A stretch of DNA of 32,871 bases from Candidatus Bilamarchaeaceae archaeon (GCA_038870635.1 JAVZJR010000001.1:360712-393582), one strand, 5' to 3'. Numbered from the stretch's first letter, positions 10,001 through 16,978 are shown. Translations and numbers: made by a program. Notes: generated from the letters alone by a model not told the origin.

Positions 10001-10864
10001 ATGCGCATGCTCGACGCAATCGAAAATATTCTTCGTAAGGAAAACCGGCCTTTGACTGCAAAAGAAATTAGTGAGATAGCAATTAAATCAGGTTTAATTA
10101 AGTTTAGAGGTAAAACGCCGTGGGCGTCTGTTGGTGCAAGAATTTACGTTGATTTAAAAACGAAAGGCGCAGACTCTAAATTTAAAAAAGTTGGAAAAGG
10201 AAAATTCGCCCTCCGCGACTCAACTCCACAATTCAAGAAGAATTCTTTCAAAGGAGCAGCATTTCAAGTTCTCAGAGAAGAGGGACGTCCTCTACGTTCT
10301 GAGGAAATATTGGCCTTGGCTCAAAAGCGAGGACTGCTTAAAACATCTGGAAAAACTCCATGGGCCACCATGGCCGCCCAGTTATACATGGACGTAAAAT
10401 CGAAAAAGTCTCCGTTTGTTCAGCTTGGGAAAAATCGCTTTGGTCTAAGGGAATTGGATCTGAGCGTTATCAAAAAAGAAATTGAGGCAGAAGAAAATCG
10501 CAAACTACAGCAAGAAGCAAGGTTTGAAAAGAAACGCTCTATTGTTGGGGAACCAATAAATTTTGGCGGTTTGGTCTATGGACCATTAAATGAAAACGGA
10601 GTGATATTTCTTTTTGCAAAACTGCAAAATAAATTGGGAATAGTAGTCGAGAGCATACAGGCAACTTTTCCTGACGCGCGGGGAAGGCGAAAAACTCCTC
10701 GCGGTTGGGAAGAAGTTTGGATAGAATTTGAATATAAAAGCTCGCACTTCAAACAACATGGTCATGACCCAAAGGAATGTGATATTATTGTGTGTTGGGA
10801 GCACGATTGGCCAGATTGCCCCTTAGAAGTAATTGAGTTAAAGAAATTAGTTAATTCAGTCTAA
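10001..10864 (+). CDS. Tandem HARE-HTH domains fused to a PD-(D/E)XK-like endonuclease domain
   Basis: Two repeats (L..E.RPL...EI...A...GL....GKTPWAS/TM.A..Y.D...F...GK..F.LR), a coiled linker, then NENGVIFLF...FPDA...IEFEYKSSHFKQHGHDPKECDIIVCWEHDW. Confidence 0.8.
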   Translation: MRMLDAIENILRKENRPLTAKEISEIAIKSGLIKFRGKTPWASVGARIYVDLKTKGADSKFKKVGKGKFALRDSTPQFKKNSFKGAAFQVLREEGRPLRSEEILALAQKRGLLKTSGKTPWATMAAQLYMDVKSKKSPFVQLGKNRFGLRELDLSVIKKEIEAEENRKLQQEARFEKKRSIVGEPINFGGLVYGPLNENGVIFLFAKLQNKLGIVVESIQATFPDARGRRKTPRGWEEVWIEFEYKSSHFKQHGHDPKECDIIVCWEHDWPDCPLEVIELKKLVNSV

Positions 10865-11284
10865 TTTTCGCTTGTTCTGTTTATCATTTCTCGTTTTGTT
10901 CTAGCAATTTTCTAGGAAGCGATTGAGAGACAGAAATTCTATAAGAAGCATTCAGTCAGTGGCTAAGCAAATTAGCCCAGTTGAGCAGGATTGTAGCCGT
11001 TGCGTTGTTCACAGTGGTTGCAAACAACATGATGCTCAAACTATTGGAATTGATTCCATGGGAGGGCGCAGCGTTCACCAGTTGACTTGCAAGACTGATC
11101 TCGACTACCGCACGATCAACAATACGTAAACTTGATAAAATTTAAATGTCCGGATTTCGTCGCCGAAGTGCCGGTTCAAAACGACCGGTGACTCGAAGTC
11201 GGTGTTGCATTCAACAATCAGAAAACTCAATCGATTACATTGTATTTTGACGCTTTGCTGGTTGGAGGAAAAAAATAGTTCTGT

Positions 11285-11907
11285 TCAAATCCAACCCATC
11301 GTATACTTTGCGTAGTTGAATTCGTCCATACTTTTCAAGAATTGTTCGGAATTCTTAACACATGGTCTCAGTTTTTCTTCAAGGTCTTTATTGATCCAAC
11401 AGAATTTGATATATTTTATATCTGGTTGCTGACCGCAGTATACTGAATAGGCTCTTGCAATCTTGTCGTCCTAAAGCGGAAAGAAGTTAGGCGCCAACAG
11501 ACGCAACGCCTTGACAACCGCTACCTGACTTTTCCTTTCACTAACCTTGGAGTTTTCAGTTTCTATCTTCAAGGTGTCAAGCAACTCAATGAATAATCTA
11601 TGTATTTCTTTTTCGTAGTCATGATTTAGTTCGCGAATACTTCGTTTTCGAAATTGCGCCAAAACGGAAATATTCTTTTCCAAAAATTTTTCGAGTCTTG
11701 AAAAATCAAAGCGTCCATAGCGATAAAATGCTTGATTCCATGTTAGCATTAAGACGCCGATCGCGTTGGACATTTTCCCGGTTTTCCCCACCAATGGTTT
11801 ACGAGAAAAGTTGCAACACGACACATAGTGTCTCGTTTTTCATGTTTTGTGAATTCATCGCGTCCTCGGCAAAATTCTTCGCAGGAAGGAATGTGATATT
11901 CTTTCAT
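11285..11907 (-). pseudogene. Disrupted gene (frameshift near 11780 plus in-frame TAG at 11471-11473), possibly helix-hairpin-helix/glycosylase-like family
   Basis: MKEYHIPSCEEF...VATFLVNHWWGKP (one frame) joins MSNAIGVLMLTWNQAFYRYG...VAVVKALRLLAPNFFPL*DDKIARAY...KSMDEFNYAKYTMGWI-stop (second frame); the frame stays open for 61 codons past the TAG. Confidence 0.75.
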
Positions 11908-12240
11908 AAGTACTATTTCGAGCCTGTTATTTATAATTGTGCATGAAAATGCCGAATTCTCCACGAATCGAAATGAGACCCCAGAGCGCCAAGTTGTTGC
12001 ATGGAAGCAAAACATTGGTCGTAATCTGCGATTCAAGAAACACGGCGAAGGTTTTGAAATACTCAGTTCGGTTGGTCGTGACGAGCCCGTCCTCGTCCCG
12101 GAAGCTAAAAACCAGCATAGAGTTTTTAAACGTCTAATGCTCCACTTTGGTACGTGAAAGGACATTTTCAAAGGGTTCTGCTCTAAGATGCGGTCTCGCC
12201 TTGCTCTCCCTGCATTTTTTTACAATTCTAAAACACAAAC

Positions 12241-12444
12241 TTATTGAAAAAACAGAAATGCAAAAATATAAATCAAAACGAGCAAAGCTGTTGTAATATA
12301 AAATGCATTTTTTATACTTAAAGCCATTTTCTTTTGCGGCTCCATTTTTGGAAAATGCATATATGTGTATAAAGCAATGACCAATCCCGCCGCTAAACTT
12401 AACAAAATTATAAAAGGTAAAACCGCAATTATTCCCTTATTCAT
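12241..12444 (-). CDS. Small two-TM membrane protein
   Basis: Two hydrophobic stretches; likely start ATG 12444 overlapping the dynamin stop (ORF track extends to 12468). Confidence 0.7.
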   Translation of the reverse strand: MNKGIIAVLPFIILLSLAAGLVIALYTYMHFPKMEPQKKMALSIKNAFYITTALLVLIYIFAFLFFQ

Positions 12445-14194
12445 CAAAACCATCTTTTTCAATTTCATTTAGTTTGTTAATAATTGAATTTAGCTCTTTT
12501 ATTTCGTTCTCTATTTCTTTTACTCTTTTTTCTATTTTTTCTTTTCCTAAAAGATGAACCTCTTTTGCTTTTTCATTCGCTTCCCTAATTGAATTAATTA
12601 CAATGTCTATTTTTTCTTCTAAAGCCCCTTTAAATTTAATTGCGCTTTTTTGCAGCCTTACTAAAAAATCATATCTCATTCTACCGCAGTTTCTGTCTAT
12701 GTCTTCCTCTATCTCCACTGGCAAGCTGTTTACTAATTGCTTTTTAAAAATAGATTTTGGTAGCAATTTTTGAACCATTGAAATTGTTTTTATTTCATCC
12801 TCTTTGCTGAGTTTAAAGTAAAAACCACTTTCCATGATGAATTTTTCTTCAGTTTTTTTGCTTTCTATCTTAACATCAAAAAGGCCCGTTGCTAATTTTT
12901 CAATTTCTGTTATGACTTCATTGGCTTTTGATGAATATTTTGTCATTCGTTCAGAAAAAATGCGCACTACTTTTTCTTGTTCCGCGTTTCGCCACTGTTC
13001 TAATTCGTGAAGAATGCTCTCTTGTCTATAATCATCAATGGCATTTGCGAACTGAGTGTTATTTTTATTTTCTAATGAGGTTGCGTAATCCACTATTTTT
13101 TTTGTTAAACTCGGGGTTATTTCTTTTTTAAGTTTATCTAAATCCTCATCTATTATCTCCAATATCTTTTTTTGCTCGATATTTATTAATTCTTCATTAT
13201 ACTCTTTTTGATGCAAAATTTTTTGTAATTCTTCATCGAATTTTTTTATTCGTTGTTCTAATGTTTCAGATGAGATAGTTAAACTGCTTTTTTCAATTAG
13301 TCTCTCAGTTATTATACCTTCAACGATACGCCTTAATCTTGCTGCGGCCACTCCTAAAACAAAACTACCTTTTTTTGAAACTATGAAACTTTCTAATTCT
13401 CTTTCGAAATTTAGAAGTCTTTCATCTTCCTCTCCTTTTATTTTTCTTTCCAAAGCATTTTTTGCGGATAAGGGGAATATTTTTATTGTTTCTTTTTCTG
13501 TCTTCATTTTTGAGGCTATTACGCCTCTATTAAAATCGATTACTTCTTTTATTTCAGAGGACTCAAGATAGTCTATCTTGTTTAATACAAAAAAGAACTT
13601 GTATGCATATTTTGCACTTTCTTCTAAAAACTGGCATTCAGCTTCGCTTATGGGCGGATCTGCAGAAAGCACAAATATTATTGCATCAGCTTCCGGAAGA
13701 AAACTAAAAGCTACATCTGTATTGTGTTTATATATTGATCCGATTCCGGGGGTATCTACAAGAGTTACCCCATGCGCAAGAAAGTTTGAAGGCGCTTCGA
13801 TATCTACCCTTTGCACTTTTTTTACATTTTTTGGATTGAGTTTTTCTGTTACATACTGCTCTATTTCTCCTTTTTTTATTTCCATTTGCTTGTTGTCCTC
13901 AAAGATTACTCTAATTTTTAGTTGAGCACCATAATGAATAGTTGTTATCACAGAAGTTAGGGGGAGTACAGCCGTTGGCAGTAAATTATTACCGAGAATT
14001 GCATTTATAGTGGTTGTTTTTCCTCTTTTAAACTGGCCAACGATTGCTAAAGTAAATGATTCATTTTCTATATTCTTTTTTAGCCTATCTAATTTTTCAT
14101 TTAGATTACCATCAAATTTTCTTGTTTTTTCTATTAAATCTAAAATTTCTTTATTTTTATTATTAAAATTTTCAGCATCAATCTTCATATTCAT
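12437..14194 (-). CDS. Bacterial-type dynamin-like GTPase
   Basis: G1 GQFKRGKTT, G2 LPTAVLPLT, G3 LVDTPG, G4 LNKID, G5 SAK, followed by a long helical stalk. Confidence 0.92.
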   Translation of the reverse strand: MNMKIDAENFNNKNKEILDLIEKTRKFDGNLNEKLDRLKKNIENESFTLAIVGQFKRGKTTTINAILGNNLLPTAVLPLTSVITTIHYGAQLKIRVIFEDNKQMEIKKGEIEQYVTEKLNPKNVKKVQRVDIEAPSNFLAHGVTLVDTPGIGSIYKHNTDVAFSFLPEADAIIFVLSADPPISEAECQFLEESAKYAYKFFFVLNKIDYLESSEIKEVIDFNRGVIASKMKTEKETIKIFPLSAKNALERKIKGEEDERLLNFERELESFIVSKKGSFVLGVAAARLRRIVEGIITERLIEKSSLTISSETLEQRIKKFDEELQKILHQKEYNEELINIEQKKILEIIDEDLDKLKKEITPSLTKKIVDYATSLENKNNTQFANAIDDYRQESILHELEQWRNAEQEKVVRIFSERMTKYSSKANEVITEIEKLATGLFDVKIESKKTEEKFIMESGFYFKLSKEDEIKTISMVQKLLPKSIFKKQLVNSLPVEIEEDIDRNCGRMRYDFLVRLQKSAIKFKGALEEKIDIVINSIREANEKAKEVHLLGKEKIEKRVKEIENEIKELNSIINKLNEIEKDGFDE

Positions 14195-15068
14195 CCCCCA
14201 TCAATTCTAGAAGTGATTTAATAGCGAAATAACTATTGCCCAATGTGGATATTCCTATGTGCTTTGCTCTTCTAAAACCTCCATCTTCGTTTTGAAGATG
14301 AGCTATAAAGTTTATGTGGTTTTTTCTTTTTTTTATCGCTTTTTTAAACATTTTTAATATTTCAACAGCAAAGTGTGTTGTTTCTATATACGGAGGTAAT
14401 ATTTCCGGAGCAATGGCATAGCCGCCTTCTTTAACTTCACACCTTAATACAAATTCAACACTTTGCCTAAAAGATGATACATCGTAACCAGCCAACTTTA
14501 AAGTATTTAATACATGATATGTGCTGACGATATCTAGATGGCCTTGAATAAACATCCATTCATTATTTTGCTTGTTCAACCAAGAAAAATCTTCTTTTTT
14601 TATCTTATCTTTACAGGTGTGCAAAATTTCCGCAATTTGATATGCTGTCTTAAATGGTGAATCCGTGGTATCATAATCTGCTGTTAGAAATTCATCATTA
14701 AGTGTTTCTATATCGATATGGGACCTATTTAATTTTGAGTGTAAAAATTGCGCATAGTAATCACTTATTTCAGTTCTTTCGCCTAAAATTTTTAGAGTTT
14801 TAATAGCATAGAACGCAACATTTACAGAATCATAGCTTCCATCTGGCCTTTGTATCTCCTTTAAATATCTTATTGTTTTTTTCTTTGACGGTATATATTC
14901 ACCAAGAAGAGAAAGAATAGCTATTGCATAAAATGTTTCTGATACGCTTGATGGAAATTCGACACCATACATTGGATATGAAAACGAATACCCTCCGTCA
15001 CTATTGAGTCGGCATTTTACAAAGTCTAAAAGTTCTTTTATATCAACATATTCGTTTAAATTCATCAT
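14178..15068 (-). CDS. Prenyltransferase/squalene-oxidase-repeat (alpha/alpha toroid) protein
   Basis: Repeats RLNSDGGYS...TFYAIAILSLLG, IQRPDGSY...FYAIKTLKILG, CEVKEGGYA...THFAVEIL, LQNEDGGFR...SYFAIKSL. Confidence 0.85.
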   Translation of the reverse strand: MMNLNEYVDIKELLDFVKCRLNSDGGYSFSYPMYGVEFPSSVSETFYAIAILSLLGEYIPSKKKTIRYLKEIQRPDGSYDSVNVAFYAIKTLKILGERTEISDYYAQFLHSKLNRSHIDIETLNDEFLTADYDTTDSPFKTAYQIAEILHTCKDKIKKEDFSWLNKQNNEWMFIQGHLDIVSTYHVLNTLKLAGYDVSSFRQSVEFVLRCEVKEGGYAIAPEILPPYIETTHFAVEILKMFKKAIKKRKNHINFIAHLQNEDGGFRRAKHIGISTLGNSYFAIKSLLELMGDEYED

Positions 15069-15086
15069 AACCTGCCTTTTTTAAAA

Positions 15087-15141
15087 GTAGAAGCTATCGG
15101 CCTATCGGCGGTTTAGCTTATGCAAGGCGAGCTTCATCGCC
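15087..15141 (-). promoter_or_regulatory. Fluoride riboswitch (crcB motif)
   Basis: Minus strand GGCGAUGAAGCUCGCC-UUGCAUAAGCU-AAACCGCC-GAUA-GGCCGAUAGCUUCUAC: P1 GGCGA/UCGCC, hairpin GCC-GAUA-GGC, pseudoknot GAAGC/GCUUC, conserved GAUG, AAAC and CUAC; ends 18 nt before the ATG at 15068. Confidence 0.9.
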
Positions 15142-15168
15142 AATATTATTAATACAGTAAAAAATAAA

Positions 15169-15633
15169 TTAGTACCTTATTATAACCGCAAGTAAAGAGC
15201 CAATTAAAATTAAAGCTGAACCGCAACAATCGCTGCTTTTTTGTGGCACTAATATCTTTCCATAAATCCTCGTAGCAAAGTCTTTTCCGCTAAGCGTCCC
15301 GTTTGCGTAACCCAAAACATCTGTTGTTTTTGCGTAAGTAAGCAAAACTGGATGTCCCCCTATTCGGGTAATCACAAAAACCATATCTGTTTGAGGGTAT
15401 TCATCTGCAATTGCAACCATCGCCAGCGTATTATCTGATAATATTCTAGCGGGGGAGGTTGTTGGTTTCTGTTCGTATTCAATAACCGCCCCTTCAGGGG
15501 TTAGACCTACATCTGTAACTTCTAATCCATAATGCTTTAGTGTTTCTCTAATTACATCTTTTGAAGTGTACTCTGCATAAGATAAAGAACAAAAAACAAT
15601 AACAGCCAAGATAAACATAACTTCTTTTCTCAT
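15169..15633 (-). CDS. Secreted/surface protein with C-terminal Cys + hydrophobic anchor
   Basis: N-terminal signal peptide; C-terminus SSDCCGSALILIGSLLAVIIRY. Confidence 0.75.
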   Translation of the reverse strand: MRKEVMFILAVIVFCSLSYAEYTSKDVIRETLKHYGLEVTDVGLTPEGAVIEYEQKPTTSPARILSDNTLAMVAIADEYPQTDMVFVITRIGGHPVLLTYAKTTDVLGYANGTLSGKDFATRIYGKILVPQKSSDCCGSALILIGSLLAVIIRY

Positions 15634-15637
15634 GTTA

Positions 15638-16978
15638 TCAATCCTCGTCTCCCCGTAAACGTCTGTCTTGTATTTCTAATTCTTTTTTGTATTGCTTATA
15701 AGTTGCTTCATACGTATACTTATATTGAAGCATTTTTGGTAGAGTTTTGCCAAGATTTTCGTATATCTTTCCTTTAGCATCTTCGCTTAATAGACCAGTG
15801 ACATCTACAACTTTTTTCAGCGCTTCTTCTTTTTTAGATTCTAAATAGTCATCCACAACTGCTTTTGTGATACTTCCAATTGTTGCGTCTGGTCTAGTTG
15901 CAGTTAGCACTAATGATATTTTATCTTCTGGAAAAAGACCTACAGCAGCAAGAGCTGTTAAAAGATTTTTATCGCCTTCTGGGTCAGAAGCATACATATC
16001 AATTAAAGATTCCATTTCTGCTGCAGCTTCCGTACCAAAAGCCGCAGCCCTTATAGTTCTTTTTACATCTTCGAAAATGTTTCCGCTGGGTTCCTCTGGC
16101 ATAGCAGGAGGAGGTTTACTTTCGTAATATGTTTTAGTGTTATCTTTCACTACTTCATCATATTCTGGCTCTATATTCGGATCAGAAAGAAGAAAAGAAA
16201 TGCCATCATGGCCGACACATTGATATTTATCGTCTAAACCTAAAAAATAAATCTGCATATATTGCTCGGAATGAAAAGCGCTTGGGTCTGCTTTTATAGT
16301 TACCGTAATCGTTCCGCTTTTTCCTGGTTCAAGGTATAGTTTTGGAGGATTGAATGTTACATATTTATTTACCCAATTTGGATAAGTTTTACCTGGATAA
16401 AAAACACTTACTCCTTGCGCATCTGGTCTAGCAGTTATTGTATATGTTTTTGTGAATGTTTGCCCGTATTGTCCCTTCTGCTCAGAAAAGCCAAGCCCTT
16501 TTATATTTTTTGTACAATCTATTCTCTCTCTGTTTGGTTTTATACACTTATCATCTTTCATGTAATAACCAACATCACAAACGCATCTTTTTAGATTATA
16601 ATCATAGCTTTGATACTCACCTTTACATGCTTCTGATTCCTTAATACATTTTCCTTCTATTTCTACTTCGTCTTTTTGGCACTCCGGCCCGTACCTTTTG
16701 TCGCATTCCTCTCTGCACTTATCTATTATTGGAGCCCTGCCGCATCCAAACCCTTGGCAAACACATTCTCCACCAGAAACATCTGCGCAAGCTGGACTGG
16801 CATCAACTGCTTTTGGTTGGTAATAACAAGAAACAACACTACAATCCCAACCTGCTTCCCAACAGCTGCACTCGCAAAGACAAGCGTTCATCTTGTCTTT
16901 ATCAACAGCCCATAGATACTGCGGAGCAATAAAAAAAACAAAAAAAGAGAACAACAAGATTTTCTTGATAACGTTCAT
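15638..16978 (-). CDS. Secreted cysteine-rich protein (EGF-like modules, Ig-like domain, helical tail)
   Basis: Signal peptide; about 19 Cys in the first ~155 aa including CVCDVGYYMKDDKC; FNPPKLYLEPGKSGTITVTIKA beta-sandwich pattern. Confidence 0.8.
   Translation of the reverse strand: MNVIKKILLFSFFVFFIAPQYLWAVDKDKMNACLCECSCWEAGWDCSVVSCYYQPKAVDASPACADVSGGECVCQGFGCGRAPIIDKCREECDKRYGPECQKDEVEIEGKCIKESEACKGEYQSYDYNLKRCVCDVGYYMKDDKCIKPNRERIDCTKNIKGLGFSEQKGQYGQTFTKTYTITARPDAQGVSVFYPGKTYPNWVNKYVTFNPPKLYLEPGKSGTITVTIKADPSAFHSEQYMQIYFLGLDDKYQCVGHDGISFLLSDPNIEPEYDEVVKDNTKTYYESKPPPAMPEEPSGNIFEDVKRTIRAAAFGTEAAAEMESLIDMYASDPEGDKNLLTALAAVGLFPEDKISLVLTATRPDATIGSITKAVVDDYLESKKEEALKKVVDVTGLLSEDAKGKIYENLGKTLPKMLQYKYTYEATYKQYKKELEIQDRRLRGDED

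Follow-up and report, generated by a model that had tools for sequence, protein, structure and literature searches.

A fluoride riboswitch stands at the head of three overlapping genes in a stretch of 32,871 nucleotides (nt) from a Candidatus Bilamarchaeaceae archaeon (GCA_038870635.1, JAVZJR010000001.1:360712-393582), called the window throughout. All three genes lie on the minus strand and encode, in the order in which they follow the riboswitch, a protein of prenyltransferase-type repeats (the ring protein), a dynamin-like GTPase and a small protein with two transmembrane (TM) helices. Open reading frames (ORFs), Pfam matches and hydropathy agree with this layout, which an initial annotation of the same DNA had put forward. 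The operon joins two modules, each of which is part of the fluoride regulon elsewhere, namely the ring family of archaea and a clade of dynamins that is mostly bacterial where its members are named. We consider it very probable that the locus is a genuine fluoride-controlled operon of two fluoride-linked families. Genomes, loci and contigs are referred to by handles beginning with G, L and C; G000 is the genome that holds the window, and comprises 859,065 bases in 8 contigs at 89.55% completeness.

The initial annotation had proposed a complete crcB-type aptamer ahead of the operon, to be checked by an Rfam scan. That scan places the fluoride riboswitch family RF01734 there with 46.1 bits (gathering score 34; E 6.7e-10), over model positions 1-64 of 64, and finds no second match in the whole of G000. 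The aptamer occupies the 5' leader of the ring gene on the same strand, and the distance from the end of the Rfam match to the ATG at 15068 is 12 nt, shorter than the 18 nt first given. Since the P1 stem begins at 15142 and the Rfam match at 15150, the original end of the finding at 15141 clips the aptamer slightly. Aligned with 15 aptamers of related genomes, the window aptamer forms part of a set in which 26 columns are invariant and 3 of the 10 predicted pairs change in a compensatory way. A GAAGCU-AGCUUC pairing is kept in 16/16 aligned aptamers, as are helices P1 and P3 and the pseudoknot that joins the P1 loop to the 3' tail. The aptamers of this order also have an additional small hairpin-like element between helices P1 and P3, which amounts to 9 nt inserted into the Rfam consensus. 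The features of the locus, in order of transcription, are listed below.

15178-15185, minus strand: TATA-like box TTATAATA, some 27 nt upstream of where the Rfam match starts; candidate archaeal promoter element, proposed from the sequence
15159-15168, minus strand: second AT-rich box TTTATTTTTT, seen in the sequence
15081-15150, minus strand: fluoride riboswitch aptamer (crcB motif, RF01734), from the Rfam covariance model
15070-15077, minus strand: purine-rich, Shine-Dalgarno (SD)-like AGGCAGGT, which directly follows the pseudoknot strand and is separated from the ATG by 1 nt
14178-15068, minus strand: ring-protein ORF, 296 amino acids (aa)
12437-14194, minus strand: dynamin-like GTPase ORF, 585 aa from ATG 14194 or 583 aa from ATG 14188
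12241-12468, minus strand: ORF of the small two-TM protein, with its start at ATG 12468 (75 aa) or ATG 12444 (67 aa)
12230-12240, minus strand: T-rich run GTTTGTGTTTT just past the last stop; possible archaeal terminator, judged by its sequence

None of the three frames is interrupted or truncated. The ring and GTPase ORFs overlap by 17 nt, or by 11 nt with the GTPase start at 14188, and the GTPase and small-protein ORFs by 32 nt. The start at ATG 14188 appears more likely, because it is preceded by GGGGGA and the database cluster at 100% identity is 583 aa long. Hydropathy places two hydrophobic helices in the 75-aa protein and none in the two larger ones. Related leaders share elements of this architecture. 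TTTATA-type boxes lie about 20-35 nt before their aptamers, and purine-rich elements such as AGGCAGGT, GAGGTGA and AGGTGGA directly follow the pyrimidine-rich 3' strand of the pseudoknot.

Across the order, a Fluoride match at E <= 0.001 occurs in 13 of 151 genomes (G000 counted), 12 of them above the cut-off. According to an ORF reading that was in part Pfam-scanned, the genes behind these aptamers encode CrcB with a DUF190-like protein, cation/proton-antiporter-like proteins and a zinc-ribbon-like protein of about 50 aa; in G085 and G092 the aptamers head homologues of the 296-aa ring protein. For wider searches a covariance model, R1, was built from 16 aptamers of this order. It under-scores distant aptamers (15.1 bits for L119 3857-3923, against 38.5 with Rfam), so that R1-based counts are lower bounds. 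One aptamer copy, at L112:1017-1159, seems to carry a far larger insert of about 70 nt; it is an R1 match that Rfam does not report at gathering. The zinc-ribbon-like protein (C-P-x-C ... C ... H-[KR]-F) has no family name and is the commonest first gene product behind the order's aptamers (L010, L013, L014, L017, L020, L021, L022, L105, L106 and L186, e.g., L186:1295-1447). G000 has a weak tblastn match to it on contig C6 (E 2.7e-4).

The ring protein and its family

The ring protein, read as cytoplasmic, scores 60.7 bits with the Pfam family Prenyltrans (PF00432; cut-off 26.5). Its structure model, built on an 81-sequence alignment, is an alpha/alpha-toroid with a predicted local distance difference test score (pLDDT) of 90.1. 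In a structural search against representatives, the top matches are beta subunits of protein prenyltransferases, at Z 21-23.3 and a root-mean-square deviation (rmsd) of 3.0-3.6 A over 258-266 residues. GGTase-I (1N4P_B) is the best of them (Z 23.3, rmsd 3.0 A, 258 residues), and all other toroid classes, cyclases included, score Z 15.7 or below.

The catalytic features of these enzymes were sought by conservation across the 81 family sequences. For a zinc site of Asp, Cys and His, no column reaches 40% His, and the sole Cys column (C210, 73%) lies outside a D-x-C context. Zinc prenyltransferase activity was rejected because the zinc motifs are not conserved, and a class II terpene cyclase because DxDD occurs in 3/81 sequences. 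An alpha subunit (PPTA, PF01239) has no match in G000, at the genome's 89.55% completeness. With no conserved zinc site or DxDD motif and no PPTA match in G000, the ring protein is read as a binding protein in the shape of a prenyltransferase, or else as an enzyme of a new kind.

Scanning one genome per species with a pattern gave 157 relatives, of which the best 80 loci were kept. Their hosts are Micrarchaeia, Bathyarchaeia, Archaeoglobaceae, Thermococci, Methanobacterium, Methanocellales, Thermoproteota and a few bacteria, and the family is common to many named Thermococcus, Pyrococcus and Palaeococcus species. R1 and Rfam combined place a fluoride aptamer on the strand of the ring gene in 47/80 loci. 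These comprise 35 in which an R1 match (E <= 1e-3) ends 14-79 nt before the ring gene, 5 more with an R1 match 671-3374 nt upstream, and 7 with a same-strand Fluoride match in an Rfam re-scan of 32 of the 33 remaining loci. Seven loci with only weak nearby R1 matches (E 0.005-0.47) were excluded from the 47, and 4 loci leave no room upstream. The initial annotation had mentioned an uncharacterised archaeal gene linked to this riboswitch class; the ring family fits that description, and the literature search found no paper on the label COG1689 attached to it.

The genes that follow the ring gene point to fluoride too. Among the 80 loci, 8 have CrcB immediately downstream and DUF190 after it, 7 have enolase and/or pyrophosphatase, 12 have DUF6062 and 7 have HEAT-repeat proteins; a dynamin follows in one (L026, a duplicate of the G092 locus). 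In a Thermococcus sp. locus (L090) the order is aptamer, ring gene, CrcB, DUF190. This order parallels that of T. kodakarensis, in which the available part of PMC4247193 places a fluoride riboswitch before TK0513, followed by crcB (TK0514), and on that parallel we infer that TK0513 belongs to the ring family. In seven Archaeoglobaceae-type loci (L042, L046, L048, L051, L059, L061 and L064), the ring gene is immediately followed by CrcB and DUF190 with no aptamer, so that the tie to fluoride export holds there without the riboswitch. At L025:6131-7350 (Micrarchaeia), genes for a thioredoxin-like protein and an ArsP-type permease come after the aptamer and ring gene, in the place of a dynamin.

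The dynamin-like GTPase and its clade

The second gene encodes the sole Dynamin_N protein of G000 (PF00350, 102.2 bits against a cut-off of 27), with G1, G3 and G4 intact (GQFKRGKT, DTPG and NKID). Its model (pLDDT 84.5) consists of a G domain, a long helical stalk (residues 258-439 and 480-582) and a tip of low confidence (448-468). The top Foldseek matches are BDLP (2j69) and IniA (6j72), and profile comparison gives E 9.3e-45 with 2j68 and E 7e-33 with 6j72. The DynA equivalog NF052648 was rejected as a label, given 75.5 against 1600 bits and one G domain in 585 aa against a two-headed fusion of about 1187 positions.

A metagenome scan with a two-sequence alignment returned at least 405 relatives, from which the 80 best loci were taken forward. 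R1 gives 105 matches at E <= 1 in these loci, nearly all on the dynamin strand. An upstream aptamer is present in 65/80 loci, within 300 nt in 54 and farther away, with only same-strand genes between, in 11; 2 loci are ambiguous and 3 leave no room upstream. In a sample of 14 loci, Rfam reports 23 Fluoride matches above gathering, at least one in 14/14, with 22 of the 23 on the dynamin strand, and it confirms 23 of the 24 R1 matches. Linkage to the riboswitch in other genomes, on which the initial annotation had made its case depend, is far wider than had been guessed (47/80 ring loci, 65/80 dynamin loci).

Neighbours of the dynamin gene in the 80 loci include universal stress protein (USP, 27), Na+/H+ exchanger (27), major facilitator superfamily (MFS) transporter (23), HAD-like protein (21), enolase (9) and CrcB (7), besides tandem DUF190 and HEAT or zinc-ribbon proteins. 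Some metagenome contigs carry what may be called fluoride islands, with 2-4 aptamers each heading its own unit (L135, L163, L165, L170, L166, L119 and L124). Typically an aptamer precedes Na+/H+ exchanger and USP genes, a second one the dynamin gene and a third a P-loop nucleoside triphosphatase gene. L135 has four R1 aptamer matches, three of them confirmed by Rfam.

These loci bear on a rival account in which the riboswitch governs the ring gene only, and the dynamin and small protein form an unrelated unit for division, vesicles or Eleos/Leo-type defence. In its favour, PADLOC reports a weak LeoBC match (E 4.8e-15, 53.7 bits), and the gene behind TK0513 in T. kodakarensis has its own primary start site (available part of PMC4247193). 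The frames in the window overlap, however, and 54/80 dynamin loci have an aptamer of their own directly upstream, independent of any ring gene; in G176, too, the aptamer heads the dynamin gene without any ring gene. The defence version was rejected on further grounds, since an Eleos system takes LeoA together with LeoBC and there is a single Dynamin_N gene in G000. We regard separate control of the two downstream genes as very unlikely.

A different possibility is that the GTPase itself constitutes fluoride-relevant chemistry, through fluoride-activated assembly, as a sensor or a sink, or by standing in for a GTPase that fluoride inhibits, much as enolase and pyrophosphatase copies under riboswitch control stand in for inhibited enzymes. 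In GTPases, metal fluorides (AlFx, MgFx) imitate the gamma-phosphate, and they lock dynamin G domains in a transition-like dimer. Among the structural matches are mitofusin PDB entries described as a transition-like state. In 66 sequences the G domain has invariant residues specific to the clade (T116, E117, N120, P121 and N123; H157, N158 and T159), and enolase copies lie in dynamin loci, as enolase and pyrophosphatase copies do behind the ring gene elsewhere. The replacement version is opposed by the single Dynamin_N gene of G000, which leaves no housekeeping copy to replace. Such chemistry is unlikely on balance. Equally improbable is its boldest form, in which the dynamin clade would be a dedicated effector of fluoride stress, its metal-fluoride-locked assembly sealing or shedding membrane; in exporter-less Micrarchaeota the operon, with a prenyl-binding ring protein and a membrane anchor, would then confer tolerance without a channel.

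Homologues of the GTPase number at least 848 at E <= 1e-20 among 8000 scored. The top 22 are 44-64% identical to it, and the 3 named among them are all Micrarchaeota-type; a gap then separates them from relatives that are bacterial where named. In a quick tree of 120 homologues, the 22 closest form one split with a Shimodaira-Hasegawa approximate likelihood ratio test (SH-aLRT) value of 100 and a long stem.

The archaeal three-gene form and its host

Because the closest named relatives of the ring protein and of the dynamin belong to Candidatus Bilamarchaeaceae or Micrarchaeia, the host is read as a Micrarchaeota-type DPANN archaeon. Nine distinct dynamin loci of this type were compared (the window, G092, G176, L105-L109 and L112). 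In 9/9 the dynamin has an Rfam-level aptamer upstream and on its own strand, and the ring gene directly precedes the dynamin in 7/9, the exceptions being G176 and L107. G092 repeats the whole arrangement of aptamer, ring gene, dynamin (42% identical) and small two-helix protein with a Y-x-HFPKM loop. In L105, L106 and G176 the zinc-ribbon gene of about 50 aa comes first. A small membrane gene is present in 7/7 loci with flanks available; in the window, G092 and G176 it comes after the dynamin gene and on its strand, and in L109 it lies upstream behind an R1-only aptamer match. The three-gene form is confined to Micrarchaeota-type archaea.

The small protein is specific to this lineage and falls in no Pfam or NCBIfam family above cut-off. 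The loop between its two helices has a conserved, positively charged Y-x-HFP[KR]M motif, and its 8 distinct homologues all lie in loci with the dynamin or, once, the ring gene. The Atlas record begins at residue 9, and the Atlas structural look-up returns generic two-helix hairpins with scores of 0.89 or below. Prediction of a complex with the dynamin scored 0.00, a 'no answer' that speaks neither for nor against association. The possibility of a half-Fluc was rejected, as hhalign gives a probability of 0.2% against the CrcB profile.

No CRCB (PF02537) or Voltage_CLC (PF00654) match was found in the three operon proteins or elsewhere in G000, again at 89.55% completeness. The statement of the initial annotation that none of the proteins resembles Fluc/CrcB or CLC-F therefore holds, and the exporters whose presence elsewhere in the genome it had wanted checked did not appear. 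Nor did tblastn find in G000 a Na+/H+ antiporter, DUF190, DUF6062 or soluble pyrophosphatase like those of related loci. CrcB was found in 2/60 relatives and not found in 58/60, which makes its absence the rule in the lineage and nothing special to G000. An MFS homologue at G000 C3:78954-80063, without a riboswitch, is 34-36% identical to an MFS family that lies beside fluoride aptamers (e.g., L023:5730-6929 and L024:567-1766). Given the incomplete genome, the 58 relatives also without a CrcB match and this homologue, we treat the proposed export-independent route to tolerance as no more than possible. The G000 enolase (C1:74358-75790) is matched by tblastn in two pieces with overlapping query ranges (4-118 and 77-411), a split that may be an insertion, a frameshift or an alignment artefact.

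The operon could instead provide transport, either because the small protein, alone or together with the ring protein, forms or regulates a new fluoride or proton pathway, or as a module working with the MFS family. In L109 the small gene has its own aptamer match (R1, 67.5 bits). The eighth small-protein homologue, in G048, lies in the order ring gene, small gene, MFS transporter, without a dynamin; the MFS family occurs in 23/80 dynamin loci, and the homologue on C3 would be its counterpart in G000. Several points run the other way: the small protein is unrelated to CrcB (the 0.2% above) and has no family, the L109 aptamer at 774-847 is absent from the Rfam report at gathering, the small gene is divergent in L105-L107, and the MFS copy of G000 has no riboswitch. 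A transport function for the operon thus seems quite unlikely.

The operon is rare among relatives of the host. The dynamin occurs in 3/400 other genomes of the phylum and the ring gene in 1/60 relatives, and the operon was not found in 6 same-genus genomes (5 of them in the dynamin search). Its GC content is 0.309 against 0.350 for the genome, at the 5.5th percentile of 1677 windows. Rarity, low GC and the position of the dynamin as a split among relatives that are bacterial where named together suggest that the operon is probably an accessory, transferred unit. In the 6 same-genus genomes, the housekeeping genes that flank the operon sit on different contigs, and no island borders can be drawn.

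Transfer raises the question of whether the operon might be a recent passenger, silent or decaying in its host. Besides the low GC and the lack of a same-genus copy, the degenerate fourth repeat of the ring protein and the gene-poor stretch of 1.4 kb that adjoins the operon would fit decay. The three frames are nonetheless open and full length, the motifs of the GTPase are intact and the aptamer scores well above the cut-off. The same DNA also recurs, nearly identical, in 'hot springs metagenome' runs of two further studies (shares 0.53-0.92 in P2 and 0.36 in P3); no RNA run is listed among the sequencing runs carrying it. Geothermal waters are often rich in fluoride. That a genome of less than 1 Mb retains the operon in a hot-spring setting suggests selection for it there, and we judge the passenger account most improbable.

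As for the surroundings, the window also contains genes for RadA, Nre, TFIIE-alpha and a RIO kinase, which mark the organism as an archaeon. No convincing ORF lies at 10865-12240, the gene-poor stretch that separates a HARE-HTH gene from the operon and has a GC content of 0.41. No Rfam match (E <= 0.1) falls at 10800-12300, and a 46-nt piece at 12177-12222 is 87% identical to the same-genus sequence G002:C101:548-593. Directly upstream of the riboswitch, 15169-15633 encodes a 154-aa protein with hydrophobic ends, and 15638-16978 a Cys-rich, probably secreted protein of 446 aa whose N-terminal segment is hydrophobic. No family matches either protein, and neither gene has a nucleotide-level match in the 6 same-genus genomes.

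Proposed function and known systems

Microbial fluoride defence is understood as export (Fluc/CrcB, CLC-F) combined with spare copies of inhibited enzymes. We propose that the three genes form a riboswitch-led, co-transcribed operon that serves as an accessory, non-exporter branch of the fluoride response, and give this explanation as a whole a probability of roughly 0.6. Fluoride binding would lock the aptamer pseudoknot and thereby free the adjacent SD-like AGGCAGGT, acting as an ON switch; alternatively, the fluoride-bound aptamer may permit read-through. In L108 the SD-like element is predicted to pair with the pseudoknot strand at -14.3 kcal/mol. All three proteins would then be made only under fluoride stress. 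The GTPase may act at the membrane, mending or remodelling it in the way of DynA and IniA when other stresses apply; a membrane-repair role, suggested by homology, is the likeliest reading of the GTPase, though tentative and somewhat below even odds. The small membrane protein could serve as a docking site for the GTPase. The ring protein would bind a ligand, for which an isoprenoid diphosphate or some other molecule bearing phosphate is the most plausible candidate, and would not act as a zinc prenyltransferase.

A number of observations weigh against this proposal. In the window, the best pairing of the SD-like element with the pseudoknot strand is weak (-2.4 kcal/mol), and the whole leader folds no better than its shuffles (z = -0.02). 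The separate start behind TK0513 means that internal promoters are possible in an AT-rich archaeal operon such as this one. Aptamers are missing from 10/80 dynamin loci despite upstream room, and from 13/13 Archaeoglobaceae-type ring loci scanned with Rfam. In L105-L107 the small gene lies upstream on the opposite strand, outside riboswitch control. The fourth repeat of the window's ring protein reads E-W-M-F-I where the family has D-G-G-F-G. As to phylogeny, the name 'Micrarchaeota-type' for the 22 dynamins stands on 3 named proteins and an identity cut of at least 44%, and the dynamin tree is a quick build, rooted at its midpoint. Finally, the fluoride roles of the dynamin-like proteins and of the ring family are both drawn from homology and gene neighbourhood. 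The initial annotation had spoken of a fluoride-inducible module for membrane or lipid remodelling: aptamer and tight operon favour the inducible part, and remodelling comes from homology.

The proposal matters because a fluoride switch here heads a membrane GTPase and a ring protein, both from families tied to such switches in many loci. If the link is functional, prokaryotic dynamin-like proteins, whose physiological roles are still largely open, would gain a defined inducible stress. The ring family behind the Thermococcus riboswitch would gain a functional context, and membrane maintenance in fluoride toxicity would become testable.

The literature search turned up no paper on a link between dynamin and the fluoride riboswitch, the supplements of the primary riboswitch surveys lying outside that search. 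A search on the wider regulon listed nothing about GTPases. By title or abstract the literature held nothing relevant on fluoride in Micrarchaeota, and the literature searched held nothing relevant on an archaeal fluoride riboswitch with a prenyltransferase. The riboswitch class itself is already known. The description of the operon as an undescribed system accordingly stands for the dynamin link and falls for the ring gene, since a riboswitch before its Thermococcus counterpart (TK0513, if correctly assigned) is in print, in the available part of PMC4247193. To us, the three-gene arrangement of these archaea, small membrane protein included, is new.

Classical fluoride riboswitch units were reportedly treated by Baker in 2012, and the riboswitch-TK0513-TK0514 locus of T. 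kodakarensis is said to have been covered by Speed et al. in 2018, a study cited in PMC8241225. The window operon shares with the classical units the aptamer, its placement in the 5' leader and presumably the ON logic, and their genes neighbour relatives of both larger operon genes. Its cargo differs in containing neither an exporter nor a copy of a fluoride-sensitive enzyme. In the classical units the crcB motif precedes crcB/Fluc, eriC-F/CLC-F, Na+/H+ antiporters, enolase, pyrophosphatase and USP genes. The available parts of PMC2864571 (Weinberg 2010) and PMC7266159 (a Breaker-lab review) name K+/Cl- transport, mutS, formate hydrogen lyase and eriC, and no dynamin. The T. kodakarensis locus is closer, as an archaeal fluoride riboswitch stands before a non-exporter gene in both. 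There, crcB adjoins; in the window the dynamin takes that place, and no crcB was found in the genome.

For the proteins themselves, the beta subunits of prenyltransferases (GGTase-I, FTase and RabGGTase) have the same toroid fold and PF00432 match as the ring protein, which differs in its lack of a conserved zinc site and in its length of 296 aa against 346-452 residues in the matched chains. The GTPase shares a G domain, a helical stalk and a flexible tip with bacterial dynamin-like proteins such as BDLP of Nostoc (2J68/2J69) and IniA of Mycobacterium (6J72); Campylobacter DLP1/2 (5OWV), DynA of B. subtilis and LeoA are further comparators. It differs from them in being archaeal, single-copy and riboswitch-led, with clade-specific G-domain residues and no hydrophobic segment. 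Expression of IniA is induced by stress, and in this respect IniA parallels the riboswitch-led GTPase of the window.

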